DNA of 64,000 nt. Source: Acidimicrobiia bacterium. Its GTDB lineage: Bacteria; Actinomycetota; Acidimicrobiia; Spongiisociales; JAHEDJ01. The position numbers were made by a program, and so were the translations under genes. This document shows, in pieces, positions 7,310 through 60,892 of this stretch (position 1 is its first letter; each line of letters opens with the position of its first letter). The DNA is taken from positions 1,533 through 65,532 of the forward strand of contig DATIPS010000058.1 in the NCBI GenBank assembly GCA_035471805.1. The letters run 5' to 3'. The notes beneath the pieces were generated by a model. It ran no database searches and had not been told where the DNA came from. It saw only the letters and a program-made list of their open reading frames with translations.

Positions 7310-7411
7310 CGGTATGCGGGTCTGTTTCGGCAGGCCCGTGTCAGTCCGAACACGCGCCTTCTTGAACCAGGAGCGCATGACCCCCACGACTCACTGGTCG
7401 CGCGACCCGAT

Positions 7412-7433
7412 CATGCCGCCGAATCCGGCATGG
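7412..7433. terminator. short GC hairpin between convergent rlmB and sensor-domain gene
   Basis: catgccg-ccgaatc-cggcatg inverted repeat; no U-tract. Confidence 0.25.
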
Positions 7434-7440
7434 TCTGCGG

Positions 7441-8049: not shown

Positions 8050-8290
8050 AGCAAACCTCCTGGCGATCACCCTACGCCGAATACGAACCGCCTGATACGG
8101 GCATGAGGAGACCGGCCGGCAGGAAGCCGCACGTGGCTCGAGGGCCCTACGGCCCTGGTGGCCGCACCATTTACCCTGATATCGTGAAGGAGATCGGCTC
8201 GCCCGGCCCGGCCGATTCATCGGCCGCGGTAAGAGGTGACCGACTTCGGGAACGGGTTCCGGGGCGTATCTAGGTGAGGCGGAGCCGACC

Positions 8291-20501: not shown

Positions 20502-22195
20502 GATGACCCCCCTTCGGCGACCTCCACGGCCGCGCGTTCTTCCCCTTCGTGAAGCTCGCGCTGGCGGCGCTTGTTCGGCAACAGGCCCTCCGGCCGGAAG
20601 ATCATGATTGCGATGAGGATGGCACCGTAGATCAATAGGCGGAACTCACCGAACTCACGGAGCAGTTCGGGCAAGCCGACAAGGGCGGCGGCACCGACGA
20701 TGACGCCCGGAATCGACCCGATCCCGCCGAGAATGATCACTGCAAGCACGTTGATCGACACCTGGAGCCCGAAGCTGTTGGGGAAGATCGAGCCGATCTT
20801 GGCGGCGAAGAAGACTCCACCCAGACTTCCGACACCCGCACCCATGGCAAAAGCGAGGAGTTTGTAGCGGACCACGCTGATTCCCATCGCCTCGGCAACG
20901 TCTTCGTCCTCGCGCATGGCTGCCCAGGCACGCCCGACACGTGAATCGACGAGCCGGTAGGAGATGTATGCCGCAATGAGGCCGAAAGCGAGGATCAGAT
21001 AGTAGATGTGTTGCGGGTTCCTCAGATCGAACGAAGCAGGCGGTGCCGCCGGGACTCTGGTCAAACCCTGAGCTCCACCGAGGTACGGAGCCAGCCAGTC
21101 TGATAGAACCAGCGTGCGAATGATTTCGCCGAAACCGAGCGTCACGATCGCCAGGTAGTCGCCGCGCAACCGGAGAACGGGGGCGCCGATGGCCGCGCCG
21201 ATCACCACGGCGATGATGACAACGAACGGCAGCGCAACCCAGAGATTCGTCAGGCCGGCCTCAGCGAACTGTTGTCCTTCCTCGGTCACCAGGAACGAGG
21301 CAGGCGACGTGAAGATTGCCGCCGCGTATGCGCCGACCGCGAAGAACGCAACGTAGCCGAGGTCGAGCAGTCCCGCATAGCCGACGACGATGTTGAGGCC
21401 CAGGCCGAGCAACACGTAGAGGCCGACGGTTCCGAGCACGTCACTGACAAACGGGCCGACTATCCAGGGAAGAGCGACCAGAGCCACGATGGATACCGTC
21501 AACGATGCACGACTCCACGTGCGACGGGTTCCCTCCGGCATGTGGTCGGCAGCCTCCCGGCGGGTCTCGGCACGGCTCATCCACCACCAGCGAAGGCCGA
21601 ACGCAAGGGCGAGGACGATGATTGTCCCGGCGATTGTGAGGCCACCGAGTTCATAGAGCCAGCCGGTCGGAATCTGCAGGTTGCCGAGCGTAACTCGCAG
21701 GATGGGTTCGCCGAGGCTCATGAGCAGTGTGATGCCGATGGCGAAAACCACTGCCGACCGGAGATGGCTTTCGAGCCCGACTAGGACACCGGCAACGGCT
21801 CCCACCGCCGTCGACGCTACGACCATCATGATCGCACCGGAGACCGGATTGAGGCCAAACTCGAGGGTCTCCAGCAACCCGGGAGTGATGCTGACGAACA
21901 TGCCGCGCACGTCGAGCCCGGCGTTGATCAACCCTTCAAACCCCAGGGTCACGATTGCGACGAACGCGCCGGAAACGAAGCCGACGGCGATGCCGGTCGC
22001 AAAGGGTGAATCGCTCTTGCGAGCGGAGGTGTAAGAGGTGATCGCAAAGGCAACGAGCATCAGGACCACACCGAGCCCGACCAACCCCGTGATGACGTTG
22101 CGGTCCTGGAAGCGTTCGACCATGCCGATCGCGGACAGGTAGATGACGACGATGCCGCCGATCAGACCCGGCTTCAATGCGGATCGCAGCTTCAT
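20498..22195 (-). CDS. livM: branched-chain amino acid ABC transporter permease with ~220-aa N-terminal extra membrane domain
   Basis: C-terminal 330 aa match LivM core; N-terminal extension resembles DUF3382-type. Confidence 0.8.
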   Translation of the reverse strand: MKLRSALKPGLIGGIVVIYLSAIGMVERFQDRNVITGLVGLGVVLMLVAFAITSYTSARKSDSPFATGIAVGFVSGAFVAIVTLGFEGLINAGLDVRGMFVSITPGLLETLEFGLNPVSGAIMMVVASTAVGAVAGVLVGLESHLRSAVVFAIGITLLMSLGEPILRVTLGNLQIPTGWLYELGGLTIAGTIIVLALAFGLRWWWMSRAETRREAADHMPEGTRRTWSRASLTVSIVALVALPWIVGPFVSDVLGTVGLYVLLGLGLNIVVGYAGLLDLGYVAFFAVGAYAAAIFTSPASFLVTEEGQQFAEAGLTNLWVALPFVVIIAVVIGAAIGAPVLRLRGDYLAIVTLGFGEIIRTLVLSDWLAPYLGGAQGLTRVPAAPPASFDLRNPQHIYYLILAFGLIAAYISYRLVDSRVGRAWAAMREDEDVAEAMGISVVRYKLLAFAMGAGVGSLGGVFFAAKIGSIFPNSFGLQVSINVLAVIILGGIGSIPGVIVGAAALVGLPELLREFGEFRLLIYGAILIAIMIFRPEGLLPNKRRQRELHEGEERAAVEVAEGGSS

Positions 22196-45022: not shown

Positions 45023-45955
45023 CTACCGTCTGCAGAGCTCGGCGAGGGCGCGTTCGAGATGCCAATCGACGCCGGCCGCGAGCTGCAGGTAGGTGCGCCG
45101 GATACCGGAGTGCTCCATTCTCTCGATCCACTCGCGATGCTGGTCCCAGGATCCGACCTGTATGCCGTCCGTTTGGCGATAGCGGGCGAGCAACTCTTCG
45201 GGATCGGCTTTGGTTCGCCGTGCCAGCCCGGCCGCCGCTTCGAGGAGTTCGGCATCGGAGTCCCCGCCCAGCATCGGCATGCAGGTCGAGATGAGGATCG
45301 CATCCGGATCACGGCCGGCCTCTTCGGCGGCCCGCCGCATCACCTCGATCCGCTCTGCGATGCCTTTCGGTTCGTGGTGGTACAGGTTGAACTCATCGGC
45401 GTACATACCTGCGAGAGTCGGAGTCTTCGCCGCGCCGGAGCCACCTATCAGGAGTCGCCTGCCTTCTCTGCGGGCCTTCGGATGTGAGTCGAATCCGGTG
45501 AAGCGGAAGAACTCGCCTTCGTGTCCACCCTGGGGGTTGTCGAAGTATTTGTGAACGTAGGCGAACGCGTCGGCGAGTTGGGCGAACCGAACCTTGCGAT
45601 CCGGGTAGTCGAGGCCGTGGTAGTGGTGCTCGTCGTCGTGCCATCCGGCACCGAGTCCGAGGGTGAATCTGCCCCCGGAGATCTCGTCGATTGTGATCGC
45701 CCCTTTGGCGTAGACCGCCGGATGACGAAAGGTGATCGGGCTGACCAGCATCACCAGTTCGAGGTCCCGGGTGTCGCGCGCCAGGGCGGCCGCCTGAAAC
45801 AGCGAGTCGTAGGCCGGGTTGCGGTAGTCCTGAGGTTTCGATCCGTACAGGTAATGATCGGCGAGGGCCAGGGCGACGGCTTTGGACTCTTCTGTGATGC
45901 GGGCGATGTTGGCTACGTGGGCGTAGTCGCCGACGACTTGAACTGCAATATCCAT
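45023..45955 (-). CDS. LLM-class (luciferase-like) flavin/F420-dependent oxidoreductase
   Basis: TIM-barrel LLM signature TLGLGAGW. Confidence 0.75.
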   Translation of the reverse strand: MDIAVQVVGDYAHVANIARITEESKAVALALADHYLYGSKPQDYRNPAYDSLFQAAALARDTRDLELVMLVSPITFRHPAVYAKGAITIDEISGGRFTLGLGAGWHDDEHHYHGLDYPDRKVRFAQLADAFAYVHKYFDNPQGGHEGEFFRFTGFDSHPKARREGRRLLIGGSGAAKTPTLAGMYADEFNLYHHEPKGIAERIEVMRRAAEEAGRDPDAILISTCMPMLGGDSDAELLEAAAGLARRTKADPEELLARYRQTDGIQVGSWDQHREWIERMEHSGIRRTYLQLAAGVDWHLERALAELCRR

Positions 45956-45992
45956 GGGAGCACGGTATCAGGCCGGGGGCGCAGGCCTCCCT

Positions 45993-46832
45993 CTACCACG
46001 TATCTTCATCCGAGATGTCGCGATAGGGACGCCAGCGGCTCAGTTTGGCTGCGGTCCGGCGAGCTCGGTTGGCGAGATCTCGCCAGAGCTGGGCACTTCC
46101 CTGTCTCGAAAGCGCCAGCTCGTCCCACCGCTGAGCGGAGGCACTGAAGGTGGCGTGGAGAGCCGGGAGAGCCCCCGGATATGCATCCCATCCCTCGGGG
46201 AGCCGGCGACCCTCGACCGGTTGGTCGAAGAGGTCGGTCAGGTACCCGTTCAAGAGCACGGTTCCCCCCCACACCGAGAGCATCATCGTTTCGAATGGGG
46301 CGTCGTCGAGTGGTCCGTATCCATCGAATCCGGGAACCACCAGGCCTTCGGTGCCGGAGAGGGCCGGGGCCGGACGGTGCAGGTCACCGAGGTCCAGCAG
46401 GATCCGCTTCGCCTCGTTGGCGGTGTCGGTCGATGCCGGGTAGTGCCTGCCGACGGCGTCCAACCAGGGGATTGCCCAATGAAGGATCCGGTCGCCCAGG
46501 AGGAATCGCCTGTCTTCGTGCGCCCGGGTCGCGATGTGTCCCCGGTCGCCGGCCCATGCCTCGCCCTCCGCGCGGGCCAGCGCTGCTCCGAAACGTGCAA
46601 GATCGGAGAGATCGCCACCTTTGATGTCGTAGTTCCAGGTCCTGGCGCGTCTCGACAGGTCTTCAGCCGGGTTGAACAAGCGGACTACCGCAGCTTCCGT
46701 AGGTGGAACGTCGATCAGGGCGGGCTTCTGCCGCCCGGTGTGCCAGGCACGGGCGACGCTCATCCATTGGGCGGCTTCGGCATTGGAGCGCGCCGCCGCA
46801 TCCAGAGAAGAAGATGTCGGTGAGGTGGTCAT
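45993..46832 (-). CDS. hypothetical protein
   Basis: 279 aa; immediately downstream of Mo-enzyme gene, possibly co-transcribed. Confidence 0.5.
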   Translation of the reverse strand: MTTSPTSSSLDAAARSNAEAAQWMSVARAWHTGRQKPALIDVPPTEAAVVRLFNPAEDLSRRARTWNYDIKGGDLSDLARFGAALARAEGEAWAGDRGHIATRAHEDRRFLLGDRILHWAIPWLDAVGRHYPASTDTANEAKRILLDLGDLHRPAPALSGTEGLVVPGFDGYGPLDDAPFETMMLSVWGGTVLLNGYLTDLFDQPVEGRRLPEGWDAYPGALPALHATFSASAQRWDELALSRQGSAQLWRDLANRARRTAAKLSRWRPYRDISDEDTW

Positions 46833-46954
46833 CCGTCCCTACGGTAACCCGGATTGTTCACTGTGCGTGGCATCTCATCGGTGCACGTGCAGTGGCCGAG
46901 GTGTTACCCCCGCCAGTGCGCCGATGTCGATTGCCGGCTCTGGTTGATGTCCCG

Positions 46955-49738
46955 TCAATGGGCCCTGTAAGCCTCCGGGCTTGGCTTCACCGGGCGATCC
47001 AGCCAGAGCGGTCGGCGGGTTCCATCGGGCCCCGGGCCCGGCTTCGTCTGCGCCAACCATTCCCTGTAGACCTCGAAACTCTTGGAAGTGTCCACAACCA
47101 CGTCACCGTACTGATCGCCCGGCTCGGCCTTCGTGATCCGCACCCGCTGGTGCCAGGCGTGCATGCCGGACACGGGATCGGGATGCGTCGGGAAGGTGAG
47201 ATTCTGGTGAACGCCCGCATCCTTCCACCAGATGCGCTCCGAGTCGGGATCGTCCGATTTGAAAGGTTCGATTCCTTTCTTCTGACGCATCATCCACGTG
47301 CTCGAACCGGTCTTCGTGATGTCCACCAGCGCCGATGACCACCGCTCGTTTCCGAAATCGTCCGAAAGGCGCCAACGACCGAGGTGGTGGCTCGCAGCCA
47401 CGACGCCCGGGCGTATGCCTTCCGTCCGCCAGGCACGAATCACGAAGTGGCCGTTGTCGGTGTTGACCCGCACCAGGTCACCGGTGTCAAGATCGAGCGC
47501 GTCGGCATCGACCGGGTTTATCCATAGAGGGTGGCCGTGGCTGATCTCATACAGGTACTTGGCGTTTCCGGATCTCGTGTGAATGAGCGTCGGCAAGCGA
47601 AAGATCGGCAGAAGGATCCTCTCGTTGCCGGCCATGTCCATTTCTCTCCAGTAGACGTGCGTCTTGAGATACGAGGGGATCGCCTGGTCTGGCCAGCCCC
47701 ATTCGTGCATCGTCTTCGACCACCACTCCAGTTTCTTGGACGGCGATTTGAATCCGGTGACTACATCCGAGTGGACCCGCACGCCCACCGGCTGGCCCTG
47801 TCTCCGGGCAATGCCGTTCATGCCGACGTCGTCGTAGGCGACCGGTCGCTCGTGGACCTCATAGATGTCCTTCTCCACCTCGACCGCGCCGTACTTGCGC
47901 ATGAACTCGAGCGGTGTGATCCCTTCAGCGGCCGCCTTGTCGGGGAGGCCGGGCACGGAGTTGTCGAACATCCACCCGTAGTATTCGTCGACCGAGATGG
48001 GCCGGTTCGGGTCGTTGGGCGACTGGAACCATTGCTTGATGCTCAGTTCGCCGTCCGGGTCGATCCGCCACGACAAGTCGATCCAGAACTCGGTCTCTTC
48101 CCAAACCTCACCCGGATTGGCCTCGTACGTGCGCTCGTATACCTTGCCGTCTCGTTCGCCGGCCACGCGCAGGACGGGTTGGCGGAAACCAAGCCACTGC
48201 CCGGCATGGGTTTCGTAGGAGTGCGTGTCGTGTCTCTCGGCACTCACACCCATCGGCAGGACGTAATCGGCGTACCAGGCCGTCTCCGACCAGGTGGGGG
48301 TGAGGGCGACGTGGAGGCCCACCATGTCCTCGTCTGTCAGCACTTCTATCCAGCTGAACCCATCGGGGTTGGTCCAAACGGGGTTGTATACGCGGGTGAA
48401 GTAGGTGTCGAGTTTCCCCCGACCTTCCTTGAGGAAGTAGGGGAGCAATATGCTCATCTCGTGGTGAGCCAGCGGATACTCGGGCGGCCACAGGAGCTCA
48501 TTCCACCGGTTGTGGGTGGGCGGCATGTTCCAGTGGGTCGGCTTGAACTTGTCCCAGGCGCTCGGCGAGGTGCCCCCCTTGGTGCCGACCGAGCCCGTGA
48601 GGACGTGCAGGAACCACAGGGTCCGGGAGACTTGCCAACCACCCAGATTGCCCGATCCTGCCGAACGCCAGGTGTGACTGGCGAACCGGTGTCCGGCCTC
48701 GGCGATCCCCCTGGCGACCTCCACGAGACGGTCGGCATCGACACCCGACTCCTCGGCGGCCCACTCAGGGGTGTAGGAGGCGTAGGTCTCCTTCAGCACT
48801 GCGATGAACTCGCTGAACGTGCAGGGTCGATCGGGGTAGACCTCGGTGAGGGTCTGCTCCCAGTTGACCCAACGCTCCACGAAGGAGCGATCGATGGCGT
48901 CCCATTCGAGGAGCAGCCGGGCGATGGCGAGCAACATTGCTGCCTCGGTTCCCGGATAGGGCGATAGCCAGATGTCCGACATGGAGGCGGTGTTTGACAG
49001 CCGCGGGTCGATGGTGGCGAGTTTCGCACCCGCCTGCTTGCCCTCCATGATCCGTTGTGCGTGAGGGTTGAAATAGTGGCCGGTTTCCAGGTGAGAGGAC
49101 AACAGCAGAATGAATCGGGCGTTGGCGAAGTCGGCGGAAGGGCGGTCGTGTCCCATCCACATGGCGTAACCAACCCGGGCACCGGACGAGCAGATATTGG
49201 TGTGCGAGTTGTGGCCGTCGACCCCCCAGGCCTTCAGAGTGCGATCCATGAAGCCGTCCTCGCCGGGACGGCCGACGTGATACATGATCTCGTCGTTGCG
49301 ATCCTCCTGGAGCGCCTTGCGCATCCGGCCCGCGATGTCGTCGAGTGCTTCGTCCCAGGAGACCCGCTCCCACTCGCCCGAACCGCGCGGACCCTTGCGC
49401 CGCATCGGGTACAAGATGCGTTCGGGGTCGTAGACCTGGTTGATCGTTGCCGGGCCCTTGGCGCAGTTGCGTCCGCGTGATCCCGGGTGTTCGGGGTTCC
49501 CTTCGAAGCGGCGAATCTCCCCCGTGTCCTTGTCGATCACGGCAAGTAGACCGCAGGCGGATTCGCAGTTGAAACAGGTGGTCGGCACCATACGCACGTT
49601 GTGCTTGACCTTCTCCGGCCAGGCCTGTGCGTCGTACTCCTCCCAATCGTCCCACCGGTCGGGTGGCGGGAAACTGGTGAGTTCGGTTCCCGGCAGCAAT
49701 CGGGGAATCTCGAGGTCCGGCTCTCGGTGTGCGGTCAT
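46955..49738 (-). CDS. molybdopterin-guanine-dinucleotide oxidoreductase catalytic subunit (PsrA/PhsA/SoeA-like), no twin-arginine signal
   Basis: 927 aa; N-terminal CFNCESACGLL [4Fe-4S] motif; MopB domains; no RRxF in first 40 aa. Confidence 0.85.
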   Translation of the reverse strand: MTAHREPDLEIPRLLPGTELTSFPPPDRWDDWEEYDAQAWPEKVKHNVRMVPTTCFNCESACGLLAVIDKDTGEIRRFEGNPEHPGSRGRNCAKGPATINQVYDPERILYPMRRKGPRGSGEWERVSWDEALDDIAGRMRKALQEDRNDEIMYHVGRPGEDGFMDRTLKAWGVDGHNSHTNICSSGARVGYAMWMGHDRPSADFANARFILLLSSHLETGHYFNPHAQRIMEGKQAGAKLATIDPRLSNTASMSDIWLSPYPGTEAAMLLAIARLLLEWDAIDRSFVERWVNWEQTLTEVYPDRPCTFSEFIAVLKETYASYTPEWAAEESGVDADRLVEVARGIAEAGHRFASHTWRSAGSGNLGGWQVSRTLWFLHVLTGSVGTKGGTSPSAWDKFKPTHWNMPPTHNRWNELLWPPEYPLAHHEMSILLPYFLKEGRGKLDTYFTRVYNPVWTNPDGFSWIEVLTDEDMVGLHVALTPTWSETAWYADYVLPMGVSAERHDTHSYETHAGQWLGFRQPVLRVAGERDGKVYERTYEANPGEVWEETEFWIDLSWRIDPDGELSIKQWFQSPNDPNRPISVDEYYGWMFDNSVPGLPDKAAAEGITPLEFMRKYGAVEVEKDIYEVHERPVAYDDVGMNGIARRQGQPVGVRVHSDVVTGFKSPSKKLEWWSKTMHEWGWPDQAIPSYLKTHVYWREMDMAGNERILLPIFRLPTLIHTRSGNAKYLYEISHGHPLWINPVDADALDLDTGDLVRVNTDNGHFVIRAWRTEGIRPGVVAASHHLGRWRLSDDFGNERWSSALVDITKTGSSTWMMRQKKGIEPFKSDDPDSERIWWKDAGVHQNLTFPTHPDPVSGMHAWHQRVRITKAEPGDQYGDVVVDTSKSFEVYREWLAQTKPGPGPDGTRRPLWLDRPVKPSPEAYRAH

Positions 49739-49750
49739 GCGATCCCTTTC

Positions 49751-51319
49751 CTACGAGAGCGGAACACTCTGCCCGGCTTTCACGAATGCGTCGTCGGCGA
49801 ACCAGATCCCCGCCGACGCGGCTAATCCTCCAACGGCTCCTATCCATGTGGCTCCTCCGGCGAGCATGATGGAGCCGAGAGCTATCGGAACGACCACGCC
49901 GATCAGCTGTCCACCGATCCACCATTCCCTGGCGAAGTGGCCGCGGGTCATGTGGTGCATGGCCGCCTCGATGTTCCTGGTCGGGTGAGGTGTAGTCAGT
50001 TCGGCCAGTGCAATCAATCCGAGAACCGAGCAACCGATCACGAGCGTCCATCCGAATGCTCGCTCGGCCGTTTCCCCGACATCGAAGAACAGCGAGGCGA
50101 TCAAGGCCACGCCGCCGCCTGCCGCGAAAGCTCCCGCAATCATGTGGTAGAGCAGCACCGGACTCTGCCACAGGTCACGTGCTTCGGCCTGGCCGAACAG
50201 GAAGGCGGTGTATCCGGCGGTGGCGATGCCCAGCGGCAGTCCGATCCATGCCATGATCTCGACCAGGCCGTCCAACTCGAACAATCCCGCCAGGAACCAC
50301 ACGGCCAGGACGGCCGCATAGGCGCTCAGAATGTAGGCGCCCCGCACCAGCCACGATCCCGGGTTGCCTTTGATGATCAGGTAGTGGAATCGATCGGGGC
50401 GTTTGAGGTCCCAGATCAGCAGCACGCCGGTCAGCGCCAGAAACAATCCGGCGACCAGCGGTGTCGTCCAACGCATCCAGTTGCTTGTGAGTGAGGCGCC
50501 GAACAGCATTGCCATCGCAACGGCGATCGCCAGCCCGGCCGCGATACCTTTCGTGAGGAAGTAGGCGGACACGCGCCATCCCCACGGTGCCGGGTGATCG
50601 GTGTTGTATACGACGCGCGGTGGAGCGGCAGCATGATCCGAGGCCGCCGAAGGAGTCTGCCGGCGGCCGTTGGAGCCGGGGGTCAGGTCGACTGCCATGA
50701 AAGACCCTTCCGATGCTGGTTCGCGCCAAATGCCGCCATCGTGGAGGCTCGTCGCCGCCAGGGGATCGATGCTGGCGCCGTCTGCCCCCAGGTAGAAGAG
50801 GTTGGGGCCGGTTCCCTGTTCGGGAGCGCGGACGGTGGTGACCCGCGTCCGCACCAACCCGGCGATCTCAGTTGTGGGATCGTCCAGGTCGCCGGCGACG
50901 ATGGCGTGTTCGGGACAGACGACGACGCAAGCCGGCTCGAGGCCCACCTCGACGCGGTGGACGCAGTAGTTGCACTTCTGAGCGGTGTGCTCGTTGGGGT
51001 CGATGTAGAGCGAGTCGTACGGGCAAGCCTGCATGCACGATTTGCACCCGATGCAGCGGCTGGTATCGAAGTCGACGATGCCGTCGGAGCGCTTGTTGAG
51101 CGCAGTGGTCGGGCAGATCGCCACGCACGGTGCGTCGGTGCAATGGTTGCACCGCATTACCGAGAAGAAACGCTTGGTTTCCGGCCAGGCGCCTTTCTCT
51201 ACGTACTTGACCCATGTGCGGTTGACCCCCAGCGGAACCCCGTGCTCGGTCTTACAGGCGACCGTGCATGCGTGGCAGCCAATGCATTTCGTCTGGTCGA
51301 TGACAAATCCGTACCTCAG
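49751..51319 (-). CDS. fused 4Fe-4S ferredoxin (PsrB/NrfC/SoeB-like) and NrfD/PsrC-like membrane anchor
   Basis: First-ATG ORF starts at 51157 (MRCNHC). In-frame upstream sequence encodes RYGFVIDQTKCIGCHACTVACK, the canonical first Cys cluster. True start is probably a non-ATG codon near 51319 (CTG after GGGAGGG); upstream TAG at 51338. Confidence 0.7.
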   Translation of the reverse strand: MRYGFVIDQTKCIGCHACTVACKTEHGVPLGVNRTWVKYVEKGAWPETKRFFSVMRCNHCTDAPCVAICPTTALNKRSDGIVDFDTSRCIGCKSCMQACPYDSLYIDPNEHTAQKCNYCVHRVEVGLEPACVVVCPEHAIVAGDLDDPTTEIAGLVRTRVTTVRAPEQGTGPNLFYLGADGASIDPLAATSLHDGGIWREPASEGSFMAVDLTPGSNGRRQTPSAASDHAAAPPRVVYNTDHPAPWGWRVSAYFLTKGIAAGLAIAVAMAMLFGASLTSNWMRWTTPLVAGLFLALTGVLLIWDLKRPDRFHYLIIKGNPGSWLVRGAYILSAYAAVLAVWFLAGLFELDGLVEIMAWIGLPLGIATAGYTAFLFGQAEARDLWQSPVLLYHMIAGAFAAGGGVALIASLFFDVGETAERAFGWTLVIGCSVLGLIALAELTTPHPTRNIEAAMHHMTRGHFAREWWIGGQLIGVVVPIALGSIMLAGGATWIGAVGGLAASAGIWFADDAFVKAGQSVPLS

Positions 51320-51375
51320 CTTGCCCTCCCAGGTTCGCTACAGAGCCCAATTCCCACCCGAGGTCTCGTCGGTTC

Positions 51376-51600
51376 CTACGCTTTCTCGACCACGAAGTGA
51401 TACTCGCTGTCCTGTTCGAACTGTTCCTTCAACGGGTTGCCCGTGTCCTTCGACCAGGCCGGGATGTCGCTGAGGGCGCCGCGGTCGGTTGCGACGAGTT
51501 CGATTGTCTGGCCGGCGGCGGCACCGCTGACGGCCTGACTGAGTTTGAGAACGGGCATCGGGCATTGAAGATTGCGAGCGTCGACGATGATGTCGGCCAT
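51376..51600 (-). CDS. tusA: TusA-family sulfurtransferase
   Basis: 74 aa, CPMP (CPxP) active-site motif at residues 13-16. Confidence 0.75.
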   Translation of the reverse strand: MADIIVDARNLQCPMPVLKLSQAVSGAAAGQTIELVATDRGALSDIPAWSKDTGNPLKEQFEQDSEYHFVVEKA

Positions 51601-51612
51601 GTGCTCTCCTTT

Positions 51613-52140
51613 CTAGATGAACAAGCTGATCGAAGCCTCTTTCATGAGGCTAATTGCGGAACCCGCCCCGACGGGTGCGGAGAGGCCGTCGATGAGATGC
51701 TCATCCTTGAGGCCCATCAAATCCATCGTCATCTGGCACGGCCAGAGGTTCACTCCGAGGCTGATCGCCATTTCGAGCAACTCCTGTACGGAAGCGACGT
51801 TGTGGTCTTCCGCCAGGCCGCGCATCATTGCCGGGCCCATGCCGGCGAAATGGAGCTTGGACAATCCGAGTTTGGACGGCGACGCGTTGTGAAACATCGA
51901 AAGCATCTTCTGGCGCCAGTCGTCGCCCGTCAGGCCGGCATCCTCCTTCTTGAGGATGCCGAGTCCCCAGAAGGTGAAGAAGACCGTGACATCCATGCCG
52001 TAGGCGGCACCGGTGGTGGCCAGGATGAGCACCGGCCAGGCCTTGTCCAGATCGCCCGAAGCGGCGATGATGACCATCTTCTCCTTCTCAGGAGTCGTCT
52101 TATCGGCGACAGGTTCGGTCTGATGAGCAGTATCGGTCAT
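51613..52140 (-). CDS. DsrE/DsrF-family sulfur-relay protein
   Basis: AGGAGG RBS then MTDTAHQ; DsrE-like Rossmann fold. Confidence 0.6.
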   Translation of the reverse strand: MTDTAHQTEPVADKTTPEKEKMVIIAASGDLDKAWPVLILATTGAAYGMDVTVFFTFWGLGILKKEDAGLTGDDWRQKMLSMFHNASPSKLGLSKLHFAGMGPAMMRGLAEDHNVASVQELLEMAISLGVNLWPCQMTMDLMGLKDEHLIDGLSAPVGAGSAISLMKEASISLFI

Positions 52141-52172
52141 CGTCCCTCCTTCTCGTGGGCTCGTCCCCCTGC

Positions 52173-52184
52173 GCGCATATGCGC
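52173..52184. promoter_or_regulatory. perfect 12-bp palindrome GCGCATATGCGC in divergent dsrE / arsR promoter region
   Basis: candidate operator for the adjacent ArsR-family regulator. Confidence 0.35.
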
Positions 52185-52283
52185 CTCGGCGAATCTTGGT
52201 ACGGCCGCTTGCGGGCGTCAACCGGTTCCCGGGGTTTTCTGAGCGAGCACGATGAGGTCGGACCGGTCGGCTATGTTCTTGAG

Positions 52284-52613
52284 ATGCAATCCGTCGCCGA
52301 CGAGCTAACCGCGCTGCACGCCAGGGTCTGCAAGGGCATAGCGGACCCCAAGCGCCTCCTCATCCTCAACGCCCTCCGTGGCGGTGAGCGCTCCGTGATG
52401 GAGCTGTGCGACGATCTGGGCTTGCCTCAGGCCAATGTATCGCAACATCTCGCGGTGCTTCGGGACCGCGGTCTGGTCTGCACCCGCAGAGATGCTCAAC
52501 GGGTGTTCTACTCGTTGACTTCGGTCAAGATCGTCGAAGCCATCGATCTCTTGCGCGAGGTGATGGCAGAGCAGGCAGGCTCGGGTAGCGAGTCGCGCGC
52601 AGCCGGCCGGTAG
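52284..52613 (+). CDS. ArsR/SmtB-family transcriptional regulator (possible BigR/SqrR/CstR-like sulfur sensor)
   Basis: wHTH LADPKRLLILNAL...ELC signature; Cys at positions 16, 42, 66 of the short form; start at ATG 52284. Confidence 0.75.
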   Translation: MQSVADELTALHARVCKGIADPKRLLILNALRGGERSVMELCDDLGLPQANVSQHLAVLRDRGLVCTRRDAQRVFYSLTSVKIVEAIDLLREVMAEQAGSGSESRAAGR

Positions 52614-52676
52614 CCGGAGTCCCGGCCTCCAGACGCTCAAGAACCCCTTGCCGCGCGTCTTGCCCTCCCATAAGAT

Positions 52677-52715
52677 ACATGCGCCGATATGCATGTCAGG
52701 CACCGAGATTGCCTG
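52677..52715. promoter_or_regulatory. two adjacent inverted repeats (ACATGC-n8-GCATGT; CAGGCA-n7-TGCCTG) directly upstream of the RBS of the rhodanese-MBL gene
   Basis: candidate operator / translational hairpin; overlaps GAGGAGGGA RBS region. Confidence 0.3.
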
Positions 52716-52730
52716 TGAGGAGGGAGACCA

Positions 52731-53858
52731 ATGCCCGGCTCGATTACCACCGACGATCTTGCCGCGCGGATCGAGGATCCCGAGAACGCCCCCTACATCC
52801 TCGACTTGCGTGCCGGGGACCAGTTCGAACGCTGGCGCATCGAGGGCAAACTGGCGCTCGACACGGTGAATGTGCCTTACTGGACGGCGCTTGGAGACAT
52901 CGAAGGCATCGCCGCCACGCTTCCCGACGATCGCGACGTGATAGCTATCTGCGCGCACGGAGGATCCTCGGGCATGGTGGTTGAGATGATGGACAAGCCG
53001 AACGTCAAGAACCTCGATGGTGGCATGGACCTGTGGGCTAACACGCTCATACCGCGAGTCCTTTTCGACGACGGCACTCACTTCGTGATCCAGCTGGATC
53101 GAATGGCAAAGGCGTGCCTGTCCTATGCCGTCGGTGCGCGCGGTCACAACATGGCCGTCATTGATCCGGCCGCCGACATCGACCGCTACCTGGCGCTGGC
53201 CGAGAGCTACGGGTCGAAACTGTCCGACATCTTCGATACCCATCTCCACGCCGACCACATATCGATCGGCGCTGCGATGGCCGAGCGCACCGGCGGCACC
53301 TACCGGATCGCGCCGGGCGATGCGGAGGACGCGGTCTTCGAGTACTCGCCTCTGGAGGACGGCCAGGTGTTCACGTTCGGCGAGCTTGAGATGATCGTAC
53401 GGTCGGTGGCGACGCCCGGGCATACTCCCGGATCGACATCACTCGAAGTGCACGGACGATTCCTGATGACGGGTGATGCCGTGTTCGTGACCGGCGTTGG
53501 ACGGCCGGATCTCGGCGGCGAGACCGAGCCCTGGGCCAGGGACCTGTTCAACACGATTCATGTCAAGTTGTCGCCGCTCGATCCGAACCTCGAGGTCTGC
53601 CCCGCGCACTACACGAGCCGCGCCGAATCGCGTGACGACGGGACCTTGCGCCGCAATCTCGGGGATCTGCTCGAGAATGATCCGGTGGTCTCGATTGCGG
53701 ACGAGTCGGAGTTCGTTGATTTCGTGGTGTCCCACCTCGGCGAGCCCCCGGCGATCTACAACGATATCCGAAAGGTGAACCTGGGCTTGCTCAGGCCCGA
53801 CGCAGAGAAGGCGAAGGAACTCGAAGTCGGCCGCAATGAGTGCGCCCTTTCCAAGTGA
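52731..53858 (+). CDS. rhodanese-MBL fold fusion protein (persulfide dioxygenase-like)
   Basis: N-terminal rhodanese with active-site Cys (ICAHGGSSG); C-terminal MBL fold with HLHADH (HxHxDH) motif. Confidence 0.8.
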   Translation: MPGSITTDDLAARIEDPENAPYILDLRAGDQFERWRIEGKLALDTVNVPYWTALGDIEGIAATLPDDRDVIAICAHGGSSGMVVEMMDKPNVKNLDGGMDLWANTLIPRVLFDDGTHFVIQLDRMAKACLSYAVGARGHNMAVIDPAADIDRYLALAESYGSKLSDIFDTHLHADHISIGAAMAERTGGTYRIAPGDAEDAVFEYSPLEDGQVFTFGELEMIVRSVATPGHTPGSTSLEVHGRFLMTGDAVFVTGVGRPDLGGETEPWARDLFNTIHVKLSPLDPNLEVCPAHYTSRAESRDDGTLRRNLGDLLENDPVVSIADESEFVDFVVSHLGEPPAIYNDIRKVNLGLLRPDAEKAKELEVGRNECALSK

Positions 53859-53896
53859 CGGGTGGCCGGCTCCGGAACCCGGGTAACCTCTCTGTC

Positions 53897-54244
53897 GTGA
53901 GCATTCCCCGGAGCCCGATTCTTCCGAACAACGGAAGCCGTGCGCGCGACCATCTCGCCAACGAGCGGACCTACCTCGCCTGGGTGAGGACTGCGCTCGG
54001 CATCATCGGTCTGGGTGTCCTCGTGGAGAAGCTCATTGAGTTGCAGGGCGTGGCGGCGGAAATCGCCGGGTTGAGCATGGTGGCCATGGGGGCTGCGGCG
54101 CTCGTTTACGCAACATTTCGCTACGAGCGAGTGCGGAGGCAGCTCGAAGAAGGGATGTTCCAGACCGCATCCACCGGCCCGATCGTGATCACTGCGCTGG
54201 GGCTGATCATGACGGTCGTCGCCGTCGTTTTCGTCCTGCTGTAG
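53897..54244 (+). CDS. DUF202 (YidH) family small membrane protein
   Basis: LANERTYLAWVRT signature followed by two TM helices. Confidence 0.6.
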   Translation: MSIPRSPILPNNGSRARDHLANERTYLAWVRTALGIIGLGVLVEKLIELQGVAAEIAGLSMVAMGAAALVYATFRYERVRRQLEEGMFQTASTGPIVITALGLIMTVVAVVFVLL

Positions 54245-54252
54245 GCGGAGAC

Positions 54253-55779
54253 TTGACGCCGCCGACAGGAAAGAGAGGCCGCCCGCGAACGGGGGACGTC
54301 ATCGCCGGGCTGAGTGTTGCCCTCATCCTCGTCCCGCAATCGCTGGCCTACGCCGAACTGGCCGGTTTGCCGCCCTTCGTTGGCCTGTACGCGGCTGCGC
54401 TGCCGCCCCTTGCCGCCGCCTTCCTCGCTTCATCCCCGTATCTCCAGACAGGGCCGGTGGCGATGACGGCCTTGCTGACCTTCGGAGCTCTGAGAGGGAT
54501 AGGGGCCGAGCCGGGCACCGCCGAGTACGTGGCGCTGGCCGCCTTGCTGGCGCTCATCGTTGGGGCGGTGCGGACCTTGATCGGGGTCGCCCGCGGCGGG
54601 TTTCTCGCCTACTTCATGTCGCAGCCCGTACTGATCGGGTTCACCTCTGCCGCGGCAATCCTCATTCTCTCCTCACAGTTCCCCACCGCGGTCGGCGTGT
54701 CGGCCCCGGCCTCCAGAATCCTCGGAAAGCTCTGGTGGACACTGACCCACTTCTCAGAATGGGATCCGGCGGCCGTCGTAATATCGCTGACGACCATCGG
54801 GCTGGTTGTAGGGGGGCGGAGGCTGCATCGGCTTTTCCCCGGCGTGTTGGTGGCAGTCATCGCAGGGATCCTCTACAGCACGATGTCCGGCTACGAAGGA
54901 TTCATCGTCGGAGACGTTCCGGCCGGCCTACCGCCCTTTTCGCTCGACCTGCCGTGGCATTCATTGCCGTCGCTGCTCGTCAGCGGTGTGGTCATTGCAC
55001 TCGTCGGGTTTGCCGAAGCGGCCGCCATCTCGCGCACGTTCGCCGCCCAGGATCGTCAGACCTGGAACCCGAGCAAGGAGTTCGTGAGCCAGGGCATCGC
55101 CAATCTCGCCTCCGGCATCTCGGGCGGCTTTCCGGTGGGCGGGTCGTTCTCCCGCTCGTCCGTGAATCGTCTGGCCGGTGGCAAGACCCGTTGGTCCGGT
55201 GCCGTCACCGGGATTGCGGTGCTGGCCTTCCTCCCGGTCGCCGGCGTGCTTTCTCCGCTACCCCAGGCAGTTCTCGCAGCCATCGTGATTTCTGCAGTCG
55301 CCCGCCTCATCCGGATCTCGCCTTTGTGGTCGATGTGGAGCTATTCGAAACCCCAGACCACGGTGCTGTGGACGACTTTCCTCCTGACTCTGATTCTCAG
55401 CCCTCGCATCGAGATCGCCGTGATTGTCGGGATCGGGCTCGGAATCCTCATTCACCTGTGGCGCGAGATCAAAATCGGCGTGCAAGCGAGCTACGACGGC
55501 GGGACGTTGCATCTGACACCGACCGGAGTCTTGTACTTCGGCTCTGCGCCGCAGCTGAATGAAGCGCTGCTGGCGTTGTTGACGAGCCATCCTGAGGCCA
55601 GAGCCATGGTATTCGATCTCGGCAATCTGGGTCGGATCGACTACACCGGCGCGCTCGTCCTCAAGAGCGTGGCGGACGAGGCAGTGGCTGCAGGACTCGA
55701 GATCTCATTCGAGAATGTTCCGCCGCAAACGAGGCGGATACTGGGCCGCGTGCTCGAGCAGAAGCTGCCGATTCCCTAG
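54253..55779 (+). CDS. SulP-family anion permease with C-terminal STAS domain
   Basis: TTG start; GLSVALILVPQSLAYA SulP N-terminal motif; C-terminal STAS. Confidence 0.8.
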   Translation: MTPPTGKRGRPRTGDVIAGLSVALILVPQSLAYAELAGLPPFVGLYAAALPPLAAAFLASSPYLQTGPVAMTALLTFGALRGIGAEPGTAEYVALAALLALIVGAVRTLIGVARGGFLAYFMSQPVLIGFTSAAAILILSSQFPTAVGVSAPASRILGKLWWTLTHFSEWDPAAVVISLTTIGLVVGGRRLHRLFPGVLVAVIAGILYSTMSGYEGFIVGDVPAGLPPFSLDLPWHSLPSLLVSGVVIALVGFAEAAAISRTFAAQDRQTWNPSKEFVSQGIANLASGISGGFPVGGSFSRSSVNRLAGGKTRWSGAVTGIAVLAFLPVAGVLSPLPQAVLAAIVISAVARLIRISPLWSMWSYSKPQTTVLWTTFLLTLILSPRIEIAVIVGIGLGILIHLWREIKIGVQASYDGGTLHLTPTGVLYFGSAPQLNEALLALLTSHPEARAMVFDLGNLGRIDYTGALVLKSVADEAVAAGLEISFENVPPQTRRILGRVLEQKLPIP

Positions 55780-57301: not shown

Positions 57302-60300
57302 TCAACTCGCATCGATGTTTGATGGTTGTCGGGACGAGGGGGGAAGGTGTGGCCCGGCCGGCCGCTGAGGAATCAGCCCCGCATCGAGAATCAGCTCTTG
57401 CAGCTCGGGCTCGAGGCGCGAGATCTCGAGTTCGAGTTCTACCCATGCGCCGCCGGCTCCCTGCCGGTCGCCGGCCCTGGCAACATCGTTCAGATCTCCG
57501 GCGGCTGCGGACACTGCGGTGGCCCCCAGCAGGCTGGAGCTGCCCTTCAGGCGGTGGGCAGCCTTGGCGACTGCACTCAAGTCTCCTTGGTCGATCCCGG
57601 TCTTGATGGCCCCGACCAGCTCCGGGAGCTCAACCATGAAGAGATCAGCCATTTCCGCGAGAACGTCGAGCATCCCCTCGACTCTGCCGAGGGCGTCCTG
57701 GCGGTCGAATACCCTTGGCCGGCCGGCTTGATCGGCGAAGCCGGACCGATCGGTGCGCGTCGGGTTGCCGGGCACCATCTGCTCGAGGGTGGCGAACAGC
57801 TCTTCCGCTCGGAAAGGCTTGGAGAGGAAGCCGTCCATACCGGCTTTCAGACATCTGTCTCGATCGGAATCCATCGCGTGAGCGGTGAGAGCGATGATGG
57901 GAATGTGGGTCTCGTCGTTCTCGTTGTCGCGAATGACCCGGGCCGCTTCGAGGCCGTCCATCCCCGGCATTTGGATATCCATCAGGACGGCGTCGAAGTT
58001 GCCCTCTGCGACCGACCGTACTGCCTCGTAGCCGTTCTCGACTGCGACCGCGACGTGCCCGCGTTTTTCGAGGAGCCTCAACGCAAGTCGCCGATTCGTG
58101 GGGCTGTCGTCGGCCACGAGGACCCGCATCCGTGTGCGCCGTTCCCGGATCCAATGGCGGGTAACCAGCTGATCGGGTCGGGACGGTCTGCTGAGAACCC
58201 TGACCATCTCGAGGAGCTCGGAGGCGTCATAGGGTCGAGCGAGGTATCCGGCCACACCGATCGATCTGTATTCGGCAGCTTCGCCGCGCCGGCCCGAACT
58301 CGGGCAGGCAATGATCGGGATGCCTGAGAACTCTCCGAGTCGCAATACCCGCGACGAAACCTCGAAAGTGGTTCGCTCGGTGTCGACGATGATGACGTTG
58401 GGTCGCCTGTTCAGCTGCTCGACCTCGAGCATCACGCTGACCGCAGTGGAGAGATCGGTCGCCCCGACCGACGCGACGTTGCCCTGTCGGAGCATCTCGA
58501 CGATGTTCCGCTGGGTGGCCGGCGAGTCCGTGATGAGGAGCGTCTGTATCTTCCCGGACGCAACCGGGCCGAGGGATTGGAGAAGAACGGCGGTGTCGTC
58601 GGCTACACCCAGAGTCGCTGTGAAGTGAAAGGTGCTGCCGGCTCCGAGGGCGCTCTCGACCCAGATTCTGCCGCCCATCTTCTCGACGAGTTCCGCGGTG
58701 ATCGTGAGCCCGAGGCCCGTGCCGCCGAAGCGGCGGGTGGTAGATCCGTCGGCCTGGGCAAAGGCTTCGAATATCTGTTCCTGCTTGTCTTCGGGTATCC
58801 CGACGCCGGTATCGGCTACCAAGACGTGCAGGTCGATGTCCGTGTCGGTGACTCTTTCCCCCTTGACGCTGACGAGAACACGACCGACATTGGTGAACTT
58901 GACCGAGTTACCGACCAGATTGAAGAGAATCTGGCGAAGTCGCCCGGGGTCACCGACGACCGCGTCCGGGAGCTGCGGGTCGAGTTCGTAGTCGAGTGAC
59001 AGTCCCTTTTCTGCCGCTCTCACTGCGATGGTCCGTATGGTGTCGCCGACCGTCTCGGTGAGACTGAACGGTATCTCCTCCAGCTCGAGCCGCCCTGCTT
59101 CGATCTTGGAGATGTCGAGAAGATCGTTGACGAGCGTTAGAAGGCCGTCTACAGACAGTTTCACCGTCCCCAGGTACTCACGCTGCTCGGCCGTGAGATT
59201 CGTGGAGAGGGTCAGTTCGGTCATTCCGAGAATGGCGTTCATAGGGGTGCGGATCTCATGACTGACGTTGGCCAGGAACTGCGACTTGGCGTCTGTGGCT
59301 CGCTCGGCCGTCTCCTTCGCTTCCCGCAGAGCAGTTTCCGCAGTCCGCCGCTTCTGTTCGGTTCGGATCGCGTCGGCGAGGCCTGCGACCGTGGCTACGA
59401 ACGGCTCCAGGTCCTCGGCGATTCGCGAGGTGTACCCGCCGGGACGGTTGGCGACGGCGAAGGCACCGGAAACCGATCCGTCCAGCCCGAAAGGTACGAC
59501 CATTACCGAATCGAGTGCGGAAGCATCGCCTGGGAACAGGGGGAGATCCTCAGCGTTCGGTCTGTCGGCTATCACGACTTCCCGGGTCCCGAGGGCCAGC
59601 CCGATCAGTCCTCCCGGCGCAGCCTGTTGGGTCTGCCCGGCCGGGTTCCAGCCTTCGCCCTGGGTGGCCTGGAGTTGCATCTGGCCGGCCTCGTCCATTT
59701 CGACGATTACCCCCCATGGGCTGGCGGTCAGGGTGAGCAGGTCGTCGAGGAGTGGCCCGAACTGGTGCAGGCGGTTGCCGTTGTCCTGGATGAACCGTCG
59801 CTGGGCTCTCGCCACGTGATCCAGCAGGGCGTTCTTCGCTGCCAGGTCGCGTTGGGCTCTCTTGAGCCGGGACACGTCGACGATCGAAAGCACGACGCGG
59901 CTCAGGTCCGGGTTGCCGTTGGTATGGAACGGCACCTCCCAGTGCATCACACAGTCGATGGGGTTCCCCCGGAGGGTTGATCCGGAGAAGTCGATGTAGA
60001 AACTCGATCGCTTCTCCCAAATGGCCAGGATCTGTTCGGTGAAGGCCAGATAGGTGCCGGCATCGATGGTTGTCGGGTTGATCGGTCCGATCAGATCGGC
60101 GCGACTGCCGGCCTCGACGAGGTCGACCGCCGCGTCGTTGACGTCGGTCACCTTTATGGCGGCGATGGCAGCCTCGAGGACCTCAGGATGGTCCCCGAGA
60201 TACGAGCGGAGGTCCTCGACACCGTCCCGGCGGAGGCGGTCGAGGATGGCTGCAGTGTCGAGATAGTTCTCCTGCCAGATCGAGGTCGGTGCGCTGTCGA

Positions 60301-60892
60301 ACAGAGAGCGGTAGCTGAGCTCGCTGGTTCTCACCGCGTTGGAGATCCTGTGGAGGGCGCCGGCGATGATCACGAAGACCGCGACCTGGAGAGCCATCGT
60401 GAAGAGGTGGGCTTCCCGGTCCCCGGCAAAGATCCCGGCGCCCCGGTCGGCCGCCCACACCAGCTGCAGCGCCCAGATCGTACCCAGGTAGGCGAGGTAC
60501 CATTTCTGGTGCTTCTTGGGTAGGAACAGCAGTCCAACCGCGCCGATCGCCGCTACTCCAACCAGCAGTGGGCTCCAACGCTCTGCCGGTTGGACCGGCA
60601 ACTGGAGCGCGGCCAGTGTGGCGACCACCAGAACCAGTTGCGGGGCGTTGATACTGCCGCGGTTGATCTGGAGAAAAGCAAAACCCGCGGTGACGATCGA
60701 CAGCGCCCCGAGGAAGCCGACACCCGCGTCTCTCGACAGGGTGGCGGCGATGATCAGCGGCACTCCGAGCGCGACTCCACCCCAACTGAGGCCGCGCACC
60801 ACCGTTCGCTCGATGGCGGATGCCGTGTCGTCGACGGCGTCGCGCGCCGCGGAGATATCTGTCCCGGCGCGTAGTCCCTGTAGCTCGACCAT
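57302..60892 (-). CDS. hybrid sensor histidine kinase: membrane domain-PAS-GAF-HisKA-HATPase-REC(degenerate)-REC-HPt
   Basis: 1196 aa; H-box [12 protein letters not shown]-boxes; canonical REC ([12 protein letters not shown]...[14 protein letters not shown]); HPt HRLKGSS. Confidence 0.85.

Follow-up and report, generated by a model that had tools for sequence, protein, structure and literature searches.

Among the described systems close to the locus analysed here is PSRLC3 (polysulfide-reductase-like complex 3) of green sulfur bacteria, for which Gregersen et al. (2011) is said to be the likely primary description. PSRLC3 is a two-gene complex ("2 genes encoding PSRLC3"; PMC5473276) that has been "inferred to be sulfite oxidase" (PMC9324843) and figures in the literature as a putative cytoplasmic sulfite-oxidising system akin to SoeABC (PMC5473276, PMC6338057, PMC9324843). 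A second system is SoeABC of Allochromatium vinosum and Aquifex aeolicus, which consists of a MopB catalytic subunit that bears an iron-sulfur (FeS) site in its N-terminal part and lacks a twin-arginine translocation (Tat) signal, a four-cluster FeS protein and a heme-less NrfD-type anchor (PMC5114278, PMC8076601). Here we analysed a sulfur locus in a 64-kb stretch of DNA (the window) from an Acidimicrobiia bacterium (contig DATIPS010000058.1), in which genes for a molybdoenzyme and two sulfur carriers face an operon for a fusion of rhodanese and a predicted persulfide dioxygenase (PDO). We hold with high confidence that the locus serves redox chemistry of sulfur compounds and centres on an enzyme of the PSRLC3 type, and with moderate confidence that its two divergent operons form a regulon for the cytoplasmic oxidation and detoxification of sulfane sulfur and sulfite.

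The molybdoenzyme complex and its family

In Chlorobium sp. N1, genes for a 521-aa fusion protein and a 955-aa MopB protein are followed by genes for a TauE/SafE exporter, DsrE2, a rhodanese, TusA, a DsrN-like amidase and DsrA/DsrB. The MopB protein of the window was 60–62% identical, over its full length, to those of Chlorobium sp. N1 and two Chlorobiaceae metagenome-assembled genomes (MAGs), and the fused subunits were about 45% identical. In the window as in PSRLC3, a fused 4Fe-4S/NrfD gene precedes the gene for a Tat-less MopB of about 930–955 aa, with coding sequences for TusA, DsrE2 and a rhodanese domain in the vicinity. By this comparison, the complex matches the PSRLC3 type, through Chlorobium orthologues that lie beside dsr genes; the activity ascribed to PSRLC3 is a proposal from the literature. 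The genetic settings are different: Chlorobium is an anaerobic phototroph whose complex lies beside dsr genes and TauE and would receive sulfite from reverse DsrAB, whereas the Acidimicrobiia complex is paired with an O2-dependent PDO, SulP, DUF202 and ArsR.

The predicted architecture is that of a complex iron-sulfur molybdoenzyme (CISM). MopB keeps the FS0 motif CX2CX3CX29C at residues 55–92, its Cys183 aligns with the molybdenum-ligand cysteine region of PsrA and ArrA, and it has no twin-arginine motif. In the fused subunit, the N-terminal FeS domain contains four [4Fe-4S] cysteine motifs and lacks a signal peptide, and the C-terminal part is, by Pfam, an NrfD/PsrC-type membrane domain; the loop after the second transmembrane helix is rich in lysine and arginine, a charge bias that agrees with a cytoplasmic N-terminus. 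That the FeS domain lacks a signal and is joined to NrfD at the N-terminal end argues for a cytoplasm-facing complex. Architecture and orientation, as read from these features, agree with an earlier note on this DNA, which had described a Mo subunit devoid of a Tat signal and likened it to that of the cytoplasm-facing SoeABC.

FS0, Cys183, the four-cluster FeS partner, the NrfD anchor and the predicted orientation are all shared with SoeABC, and we propose that the complex is its functional equivalent. SoeABC is encoded by three genes in the order A-B-C, whereas here B and C are fused and stand ahead of A. The label "SoeBC-SoeA-like" given by the earlier note is reasonable: it holds for the Tat-less cytoplasmic CISM architecture and fails for the three-gene soeABC order, which is replaced by a two-gene (BC)-A order, and the link to SoeA draws on literature statements, not on sequence comparison.

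The start of the fused-subunit gene at 51319 can be reached only via a CTG codon, located 5 nt after a Shine-Dalgarno sequence (GGGAGGG). A gene caller limited to ATG, GTG and TTG would start this gene at 51157 and lose the first FeS motif, because none of those codons occurs between the upstream stop and the first cluster motif. The program-made list of open reading frames (ORFs) begins the gene at that internal ATG, 51157.

No NCBIfam model reached its cut-off for the Mo complex, the nearest being PhsA, DmsA and ArrA and, for the FeS part, TtrB; the scores of the reductase models fell well short. The PDB chains closest to MopB were PsrA and ArrA, in matches confined to the N-terminal half; NCBIfam returned no SoeA match for MopB, and the PDB contained nothing closer than these two chains. 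Identity was 25% to Salmonella PhsA and 24% to an ArxA. Genome records call the family just "molybdopterin-dependent oxidoreductase", and the JGI source names shown for it read "anaerobic selenocysteine-containing dehydrogenase", never SoeA; annotation-based surveys of the sulfur cycle therefore probably miss it. SoeA candidates from the plasmid collection proved to be unrelated MopB enzymes, namely ferredoxin-linked proteins of Thioclava and Agrobacterium vitis, a Cereibacter arx cluster and an unannotated Ralstonia record. The Cereibacter cluster, on the conjugative plasmid pORIO3 of Cereibacter azotoformans ORIO from Mono County (L095, 2792–9209), has an arx-type gene order, like an arxB2-A-B-C-D arsenite oxidase operon. 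A search with P0167, a Tat-bearing relative, found no annotated TtrA.

Relatives were scanned with one genome per species, which yielded 595, and the best 80 were used for taxonomy. These 80 came from Acidimicrobiia and other Actinomycetota, Chloroflexota, Bacteroidota, Acidobacteriota, Gemmatimonadota, Planctomycetota, Binatia, Methylomirabilota, MAGs labelled Deltaproteobacteria, and Chlorobium. A tblastn search of plasmids added proteins of 54–62% identity in Rhodococcus jostii RHA1 (pRHL3), a Thermomicrobium roseum megaplasmid and several haloarchaea. The family spans at least ten bacterial phyla as well as haloarchaea. In 74 of 85 loci, Chlorobium included, the gene immediately upstream of that for MopB encodes a full-length FeS/NrfD fusion. 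A Tat motif was absent from every MopB family member checked, and an N-terminal extension, FPPPxxWDDWxEYDAxAWP, is common to them all.

Haloarchaeal plasmids of Natrinema, Halomarina and Halomicrococcus encode MopB proteins 53–57% identical to the bacterial protein. In the one haloarchaeal locus examined, on a Natrinema halophilum plasmid (L007), the fused FeS/NrfD gene and the MopB gene are followed by an Mrp/NBP35 gene. The sequences of these plasmid copies suggest transfer between domains.

A neighbour-joining tree of MopB was built with references that included PhsA and ArxA; TtrA and SoeA were not in the tree. The core clade, with 64% bootstrap, lay inside an enclosing clade with 100%, and Salmonella PhsA and ArxA fell outside the latter. 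Firm clustering of the Mo subunit with Tat-bearing Psr/Phs enzymes, which the earlier note had named as the outcome that would speak against its proposal, was thus not seen in this TtrA-free tree. By the absence of a Tat signal and by the position of PhsA and ArxA outside the clade, the complex is unlike the periplasmic Psr/Phs/Ttr/Arr reductases. Among its distant members, the enclosing clade contains the Tat-less P0124 (fused) and P0129, together with three Tat-bearing proteins, P0167 and the unfused P0127 and P0157, whose genes are in the order B-C-A. Clear Tat motifs were found in the distant relatives P0127, P0157, P0167, P0236 and that of Azoarcus.

Two of these distant relatives have distinctive surroundings. 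On plasmid pAZKH of Azoarcus sp. KH32C (L005, 5251–10411), a Tat-exported MopB of 31–33% identity is encoded with separate FeS, NrfD and TorD genes; adjoining genes specify a PhnD-like binding protein, a histidine kinase and a sigma-54 regulator (AioXSR-like), as well as an ACR3 arsenite pump. The third cysteine is missing from the FS0 motif of this MopB (CHVCNIQDG), which may be an uncharacterised metalloid oxidoreductase. On the metagenome contig of P0236 (L009, 5500–10628), the gene of a regulator that joins an ArsR-type helix-turn-helix domain to rhodanese lies upstream of those for a PhnD-like protein, an FeS protein and the Tat-bearing MopB; no NrfD gene is present.

Conserved linkage to genes of predicted persulfide oxidation

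To describe the gene neighbourhood of the family, neighbours were clustered for 85 loci and counted in the 54 that had at least 5 kb upstream and at least 3 kb downstream. The commonest neighbour of the Mo enzyme was a PDO-type fusion of a metallo-beta-lactamase (MBL) domain and rhodanese, present in 29 of the 54 well-flanked loci and taking either a CstB-like form (about 470–490 aa) or a 375-aa Rhd-MBL form. SulP (15/54), TusA (10/54) and DsrE2 (9/54) also recurred, as did a gene for a flavoprotein resembling sulfide:quinone oxidoreductase (SQR), in 6 loci. A Myxococcota relative (42% identical) sits behind genes for a sigma-54 activator, a PDO-rhodanese and two Sulf_transp proteins, and in Thermomicrobium a CsoR-like regulator is encoded directly upstream of the Mo complex. 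The association of the Mo enzyme with PDO, SulP, TusA and DsrE2, noticed at first in this single locus, thus recurs across phyla. The arrangement is not due to chance, as the same genes keep company in further Acidimicrobiia, in Rhodococcus and in other phyla. That their linkage returns in unrelated lineages is the chief evidence for placing the action of the Mo enzyme downstream of persulfide oxidation.

Some loci showed individual arrangements. A Bacteroidota MAG (L033) has an SQR-like pyridine-nucleotide-disulfide oxidoreductase gene (6956–8236) between the fused-subunit and MopB genes, and a gap of similar size separates the two Mo-enzyme genes in L045. In Terriglobales, genes for CysK-like proteins (PLP-dependent, cysteine-synthase-like) in 4 loci and CysE-like proteins (hexapeptide-repeat acetyltransferases) in 5 loci were found near the complex; in L062 (5334–7108) they lie directly upstream of it, which ties the complex to cysteine metabolism there.

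Genes and regulator of the locus

All ten ORFs named by the earlier note were recovered in frame, and Pfam upheld their domain calls, so that at the domain level each gene corresponds to the sulfur module assigned to it (Table 1). In the minus-strand operon, the genes from dsrE2 to the MopB gene are separated by gaps of 12, 56 and 12 nt; in the plus-strand operon, from the MBL gene to sulP, there is one overlap and then an 8-nt gap. The start codon of the DUF202 gene is ambiguous (GTG at 53840, 53855 or 53897). The closest matches of the encoded proteins were Acidimicrobiia MAG proteins with 76–90% identity, and a gene for an actinobacterial proteasome activator lies near the locus. The flanking genes, for an ABC-2 transporter, MpaB/Lcp and a hybrid histidine kinase, are unrelated to sulfur. 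The kinase (57302–60892, minus strand; 1196 aa with GAF, HisKA, HATPase, receiver and Hpt domains) is encoded two genes to the right of the locus, and no link to the sulfur genes was seen.

Table 1. Genes and promoter-like elements of the locus (positions in the window)
Feature	Position	Strand	Basis
LLM-class (luciferase-like) oxidoreductase	45023–45955	-	Pfam Bac_luciferase 1.2e-37
Conserved hypothetical protein, 279 aa	45993–46832	-	no Pfam/NCBIfam match
MopB catalytic subunit (Mo/W-bis-pyranopterin guanine dinucleotide), 927 aa	46955–49738	-	Pfam Molybdop_Fe4S4 + Molybdopterin + Molydop_binding
Fused 4Fe-4S/NrfD subunit, 522 aa, CTG start	49751–51319	-	Pfam Fer4_11 + NrfD
TusA-family sulfur carrier, 74 aa, CPMP	51376–51600	-	Pfam TusA 4.4e-21, 75 bits
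DsrE2-type (PF13686) sulfur-carrier-like protein	51613–52140	-	Pfam DrsE_2 2.5e-48, 164 bits
Promoter-like element TTGACG-N17-CAAGAT, then perfect palindrome GCGCATATGCGC (52173–52184)	52173–52221	-	upstream of dsrE2 operon
ArsR/SmtB-family regulator, 109 aa	52284–52613	+	Pfam HTH_5 1.2e-16
Promoter-like element TTGCCG-N17-TAAGAT, then ACATGC-N8-GCATGT (52677–52696)	52648–52696	+	upstream of rhodanese-PDO gene
Rhodanese + MBL (Lactamase_B) fusion, 375 aa, THLHADH	52731–53858	+	Pfam
DUF202 (YidH-like) small membrane protein	ORF 53840–54244	+	Pfam DUF202 8e-21
SulP-family anion permease, C-terminal STAS	54253–55779	+	Pfam Sulfate_transp 2.6e-84 + STAS

The rhodanese-MBL fusion has the features expected of a PDO. 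Its N-terminal rhodanese domain carries the active-site loop C74-AHGGSS, with C74 aligned to the active-site cysteine of BpPRF, and the C-terminal MBL domain has the motifs THLHADH, TPGHTPGS, TGDAVF, VGRPDL and PAH, of which G-R-P-D is also present in aligned PDOs. The best PDB matches of the MBL domain were the CstB-like 3TP9, BpPRF (5VE3-5), 4YSB, ETHE1 (4CHL) and CstB (3R2U), at 4e-19 to 4e-12, and all of the top nine were PDOs or CstB-like proteins (4e-19 to 1e-10). True glyoxalase II structures matched more weakly, from about 1e-5 (1XM8, 9e-6) to 3e-3 (1QH3). The MBL domain thus ranks with PDOs in the PDB comparison and is probably PDO-type, in keeping with the earlier note, which had allowed for a plain glyoxalase II. 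The NCBIfam Blh model gave the fusion 24 bits (cut-off 625), with no equivalog-level match, and the rhodanese-first domain order is unlike the known PDO-Rhd(-Rhd) order. Acidimicrobiia MAGs contain the 375-aa Rhd-MBL architecture in abundance, under no more than the label "MBL fold metallo-hydrolase". As for the membrane proteins of this operon, DUF202 genes come after the MBL gene in Rhodococcus pRHL3, one DUF202 gene adjoins the rhodanese-MBL gene in L012 and L090, and SulP scored 290 bits with TIGR00815, under the cut-off of 380.

Both sulfur carriers also scored under their NCBIfam equivalog cut-offs, so that TusA and DsrE2 are to be taken as family members and not as demonstrated orthologues of E. 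coli TusA and A. vinosum DsrE2A. The DsrE2 cysteine lies in WPCQMTM and is conserved in an alignment with Rhodococcus and Chlorobium DsrE2.

Downstream of the MopB gene, the 279-aa protein has homologues of 39–48% identity at the same position in 7 Acidimicrobiia loci, and in Acidimicrobiia the MopB gene is invariably followed by one for a conserved protein of this kind, 214–279 aa long (for example L001, 12769–13470, and L002, 12721–13365). The corresponding slot is occupied by an Mrp/NBP35 ATPase in Rhodococcus, L090 and Natrinema and by a TorD/NarJ-like chaperone in the Tat-bearing relatives. The 279-aa protein matched no Pfam family even at E=10 and no NCBIfam model, and its single-sequence AlphaFold model (pLDDT, the predicted local distance difference test score, 45) was too poor for a fold search. 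Comparison by hhalign with four TorD/NarJ-like neighbours gave no support for a TorD/NarJ-type chaperone (probability 1%). The protein may be a lineage-specific maturation factor. For the last gene, that of the LLM oxidoreductase, the best NCBIfam matches were F420-dependent LLM subfamilies, all under cut-off. Related loci lack it at the corresponding position, and we therefore no longer count it as a member of the unit, in which the earlier note had placed it.

ArsR aligns well with HlyU, NolR and BigR-type proteins and scored 63 bits with the NCBIfam BigR model (cut-off 155). Both sensor-cysteine positions of BigR/SqrR, in alpha2 ("ILC") and C-terminally in alpha5, are replaced (LILN and VMA), as they are in each of the 8 homologues found beside loci of this type in Acidimicrobiia and Rhodococcus. 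The idea of a BigR/SqrR-type sensor was therefore given up. The sole invariant cysteine of ArsR and these 8 homologues is Cys16, in LHA[RS]VCKG, which suggests a sensing chemistry unlike the cysteine pair of BigR/SqrR.

Candidate operators were spotted by reading and comparing sequences; an automatic inverted-repeat search of the intergenic regions found none. Both promoter regions have a like layout, a -35/-10-like element followed by an inverted repeat, and the same layout recurs upstream of dsrE2 in L012, L013, L016, L021 and L035, with the half-sites CGCATA/TATGCG. The exact palindrome GCGCATATGCGC is not kept in other loci; the half-site and the layout are. The pattern AAGAT-N0-14-ATGCGC has 3 matches in the window against 0.24 expected, and no shuffle gave 3. 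Two of the three are the promoters of the locus; the third (21312–21333) falls inside a 565-aa minus-strand ORF and is probably due to chance. The shared elements suggest that both operons form a single ArsR regulon with the palindromes as candidate operators. With its one conserved cysteine and a defined palindromic site, this ArsR may stand for another mode of reactive-sulfur sensing.

Proposed pathway, alternatives and known systems

Oxidation of persulfide to sulfite and of sulfite to sulfate, followed by export, is the best-supported and most likely reading of the locus, in which we infer all substrates, the directions of electron flow and transport, and the effector. ArsR would repress both operons by binding the ATGCGC-containing palindromes just downstream of the two -10 regions and would let go of the promoters when reactive sulfur modifies its single conserved cysteine. 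From homology, the rhodanese-PDO would then convert low-molecular-weight persulfide and O2 to sulfite, with the rhodanese domain handling sulfane sulfur. The PSRLC3-type complex would oxidise sulfite to sulfate on the cytoplasmic side, passing electrons from the molybdenum cofactor through FS0 and the four [4Fe-4S] clusters to menaquinone in the NrfD domain, and SulP, perhaps with DUF202, would export the oxyanion product. TusA and DsrE2, co-transcribed with the Mo enzyme, would feed or buffer the pathway as cytoplasmic sulfur carriers.

Several points weigh against this pathway. No SQR or other persulfide source was found within the 64-kb window, and no PDO gene was detected nearby in 25 of the 54 well-flanked loci. 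The established persulfide-sensing cysteine pair is missing from the regulator, and the direction of SulP transport is not readable from its sequence. Sulfite oxidation by the fused family, PSRLC3 of green sulfur bacteria included, is argued by analogy. Tat-bearing, unfused enzymes without a known function are among the nearest relatives beyond the core clade. In addition, a published MopB phylogeny groups SoeA with the cytoplasmic sulfur reductase bSreA (PMC10100899), so that membership of the SoeA clade would not fix substrate or reaction direction.

The alternative that survives best, though we consider it unlikely, is that the Mo complex is a cytoplasmic reductase like SreABC of Aquifex, in which menaquinol reduces polysulfide, thiosulfate, tetrathionate or elemental sulfur supplied by TusA/DsrE2 and sulfane sulfur is managed reductively. 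It is consistent with the likeness of the N-terminal half to PhsA, PsrA and ArrA and of the FeS domain to TtrB, with the matching B-C-A order of Tat-bearing relatives in the same 100% clade, with the grouping of bSreA and SoeA (PMC10100899) and with the sulfur carriers encoded immediately upstream. However, such an enzyme would make sulfide beside an O2-dependent PDO, a futile cycle; the neighbours serve oxidation or export (PDO, SQR-like, TauE, SulP, and dsrAB in a sulfide oxidiser), the hosts include the aerobic heterotrophs Rhodococcus and Thermomicrobium, and identity to PhsA is just 25%.

Next, and likewise doubtful, is a general cytoplasmic sulfite dehydrogenase that would take its sulfite mainly from organosulfur catabolism (sulfonates, cysteine or dimethylsulfoniopropionate derivatives), with the PDO operon as an independent neighbour. 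The use of SoeABC in Ruegeria offers a parallel. The CysK and CysE genes adjoining the complex in Terriglobales and the 25 of 54 well-flanked loci in which PDO was not detected fit this explanation; the operator-like element similar at both promoters of the window does not, nor does the position of PDO as by far the commonest neighbour across unrelated phyla. The LLM-class gene downstream has weak similarity to SfnG/SsuD, which would suit organosulfur catabolism, but it is not conserved and scores better as an F420-type enzyme.

Still less probable, in our judgement, is that the substrate of the complex is sulfur still bound to its carrier, a persulfide or thiosulfonate of TusA/DsrE2, oxidised by an O2-independent route distinct from Dsr and sHdr. 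In the window, Rhodococcus and L090, dsrE2 and tusA share an operon with the Mo genes and lie directly upstream of them, and in Chlorobium they lie immediately downstream. Against this, TusA and DsrE2 are absent from most loci of the family (present in 10/54 and 9/54), the co-encoded PDO would already convert sulfane sulfur to sulfite, and no MopB enzyme is known to act on a protein persulfide. What DsrE2 does physiologically has yet to be settled in the literature (PMC11094781), which leaves room for such a function. A speculative variant, to which we give an equally small chance, is that the complex may oxidise free sulfite plus sulfur straight from TusA/DsrE2, a third quinone-linked, O2-independent cytoplasmic route for sulfane sulfur beside Dsr and sHdr; if true, this route would occur in heterotrophs of many phyla and in haloarchaea. 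Finally, action of the Mo enzyme on a non-sulfur oxyanion (arsenite, selenate, nitrate-like or other) in a coincidental sulfur context is very improbable, since linkage of the core family to sulfur genes is consistent across many phyla and the Azoarcus KH32C relative (31–33%) beside an ACR3 arsenite pump and AioXSR-like regulators is Tat-exported, unfused and outside the core clade, even though MopB substrate specificity cannot be read from sequence, as stated for CISM enzymes (PMC12998232).

The pathway from persulfide through sulfite to sulfate would bear on a wider question. PDOs are common in heterotrophic bacteria, and their product, sulfite, is toxic and often of unclear fate. In a sediment study, pdo expression rose in twenty phyla after sulfide addition, and direct sulfite-oxidising enzymes were scarce, with SoeABC undetected (PMC12345210). 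The PSRLC3-type family adjoins PDO genes in Actinomycetota, Acidobacteriota, Bacteroidota and Chloroflexota, phyla that also appear in that study (PMC12345210). If the family is an energy-conserving sulfite:menaquinone oxidoreductase that partners PDO, the route from sulfide to sulfate would be closed in many heterotrophs, PSRLC3 of green sulfur bacteria would gain a testable function, and sulfur-cycle gene surveys would count sulfite oxidation differently.

What was already known comprises the name of the PSRLC3 family and the hypothesis attached to it, and PDO operons under small repressors. Full-text literature searches returned no description of the present gene combination or of a fused SoeBC in actinobacteria, and we found no account of a PDO paired with a one-cysteine ArsR, TusA/DsrE2 and the fused complex, of Actinomycetota and haloarchaea as carriers of the family, or of the family's broad linkage to PDO in heterotrophs. 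The earlier note had called the combination undescribed, least of all in an actinobacterial context; the first half agrees with these searches, and the second gives way to its presence in Rhodococcus and many phyla, by which a singular actinobacterial invention is rejected.

The plus-strand operon is like BigR-Blh of Xylella and Agrobacterium and CstR-CstA/CstB-SQR of Staphylococcus aureus in that a small repressor is combined with a PDO fused to a sulfurtransferase and with a transporter that would carry the oxidised product across the membrane. The classical rhodanese is placed N-terminally here, unlike in CstB (PDO-Rhd-Rhd) and PRF (PDO-Rhd). The BigR-Blh and CstR systems have a TauE transporter and no sulfite-oxidising molybdoenzyme, whereas SulP and DUF202 are found here. 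On the other strand, the gene for a CPxP-containing TusA adjoins that for a DsrE2-type protein of PF13686 beside sulfur-oxidation genes, as in the rhd-tusA-dsrE2 relay of A. vinosum; unlike in that relay, the rhodanese is fused to PDO and the locus has no Dsr or sHdr to take the sulfur.

The most similar arrangement in a cultured organism is on plasmid pRHL3 of R. jostii RHA1 (RHA1_RS43835–43875), where DsrE-TusA-fused FeS/NrfD-MopB faces MBL-DUF202-DUF202-ArsR under generic annotations only. It differs by an Mrp/NBP35 ATPase in place of the hypothetical protein, by the absence of SulP and by an additional CstB-like MBL protein and thioredoxin. Its MopB is 60% and its ArsR 64% identical to those of the window, with the same single conserved cysteine, and this near-identical locus makes the ideas put forward here directly testable.

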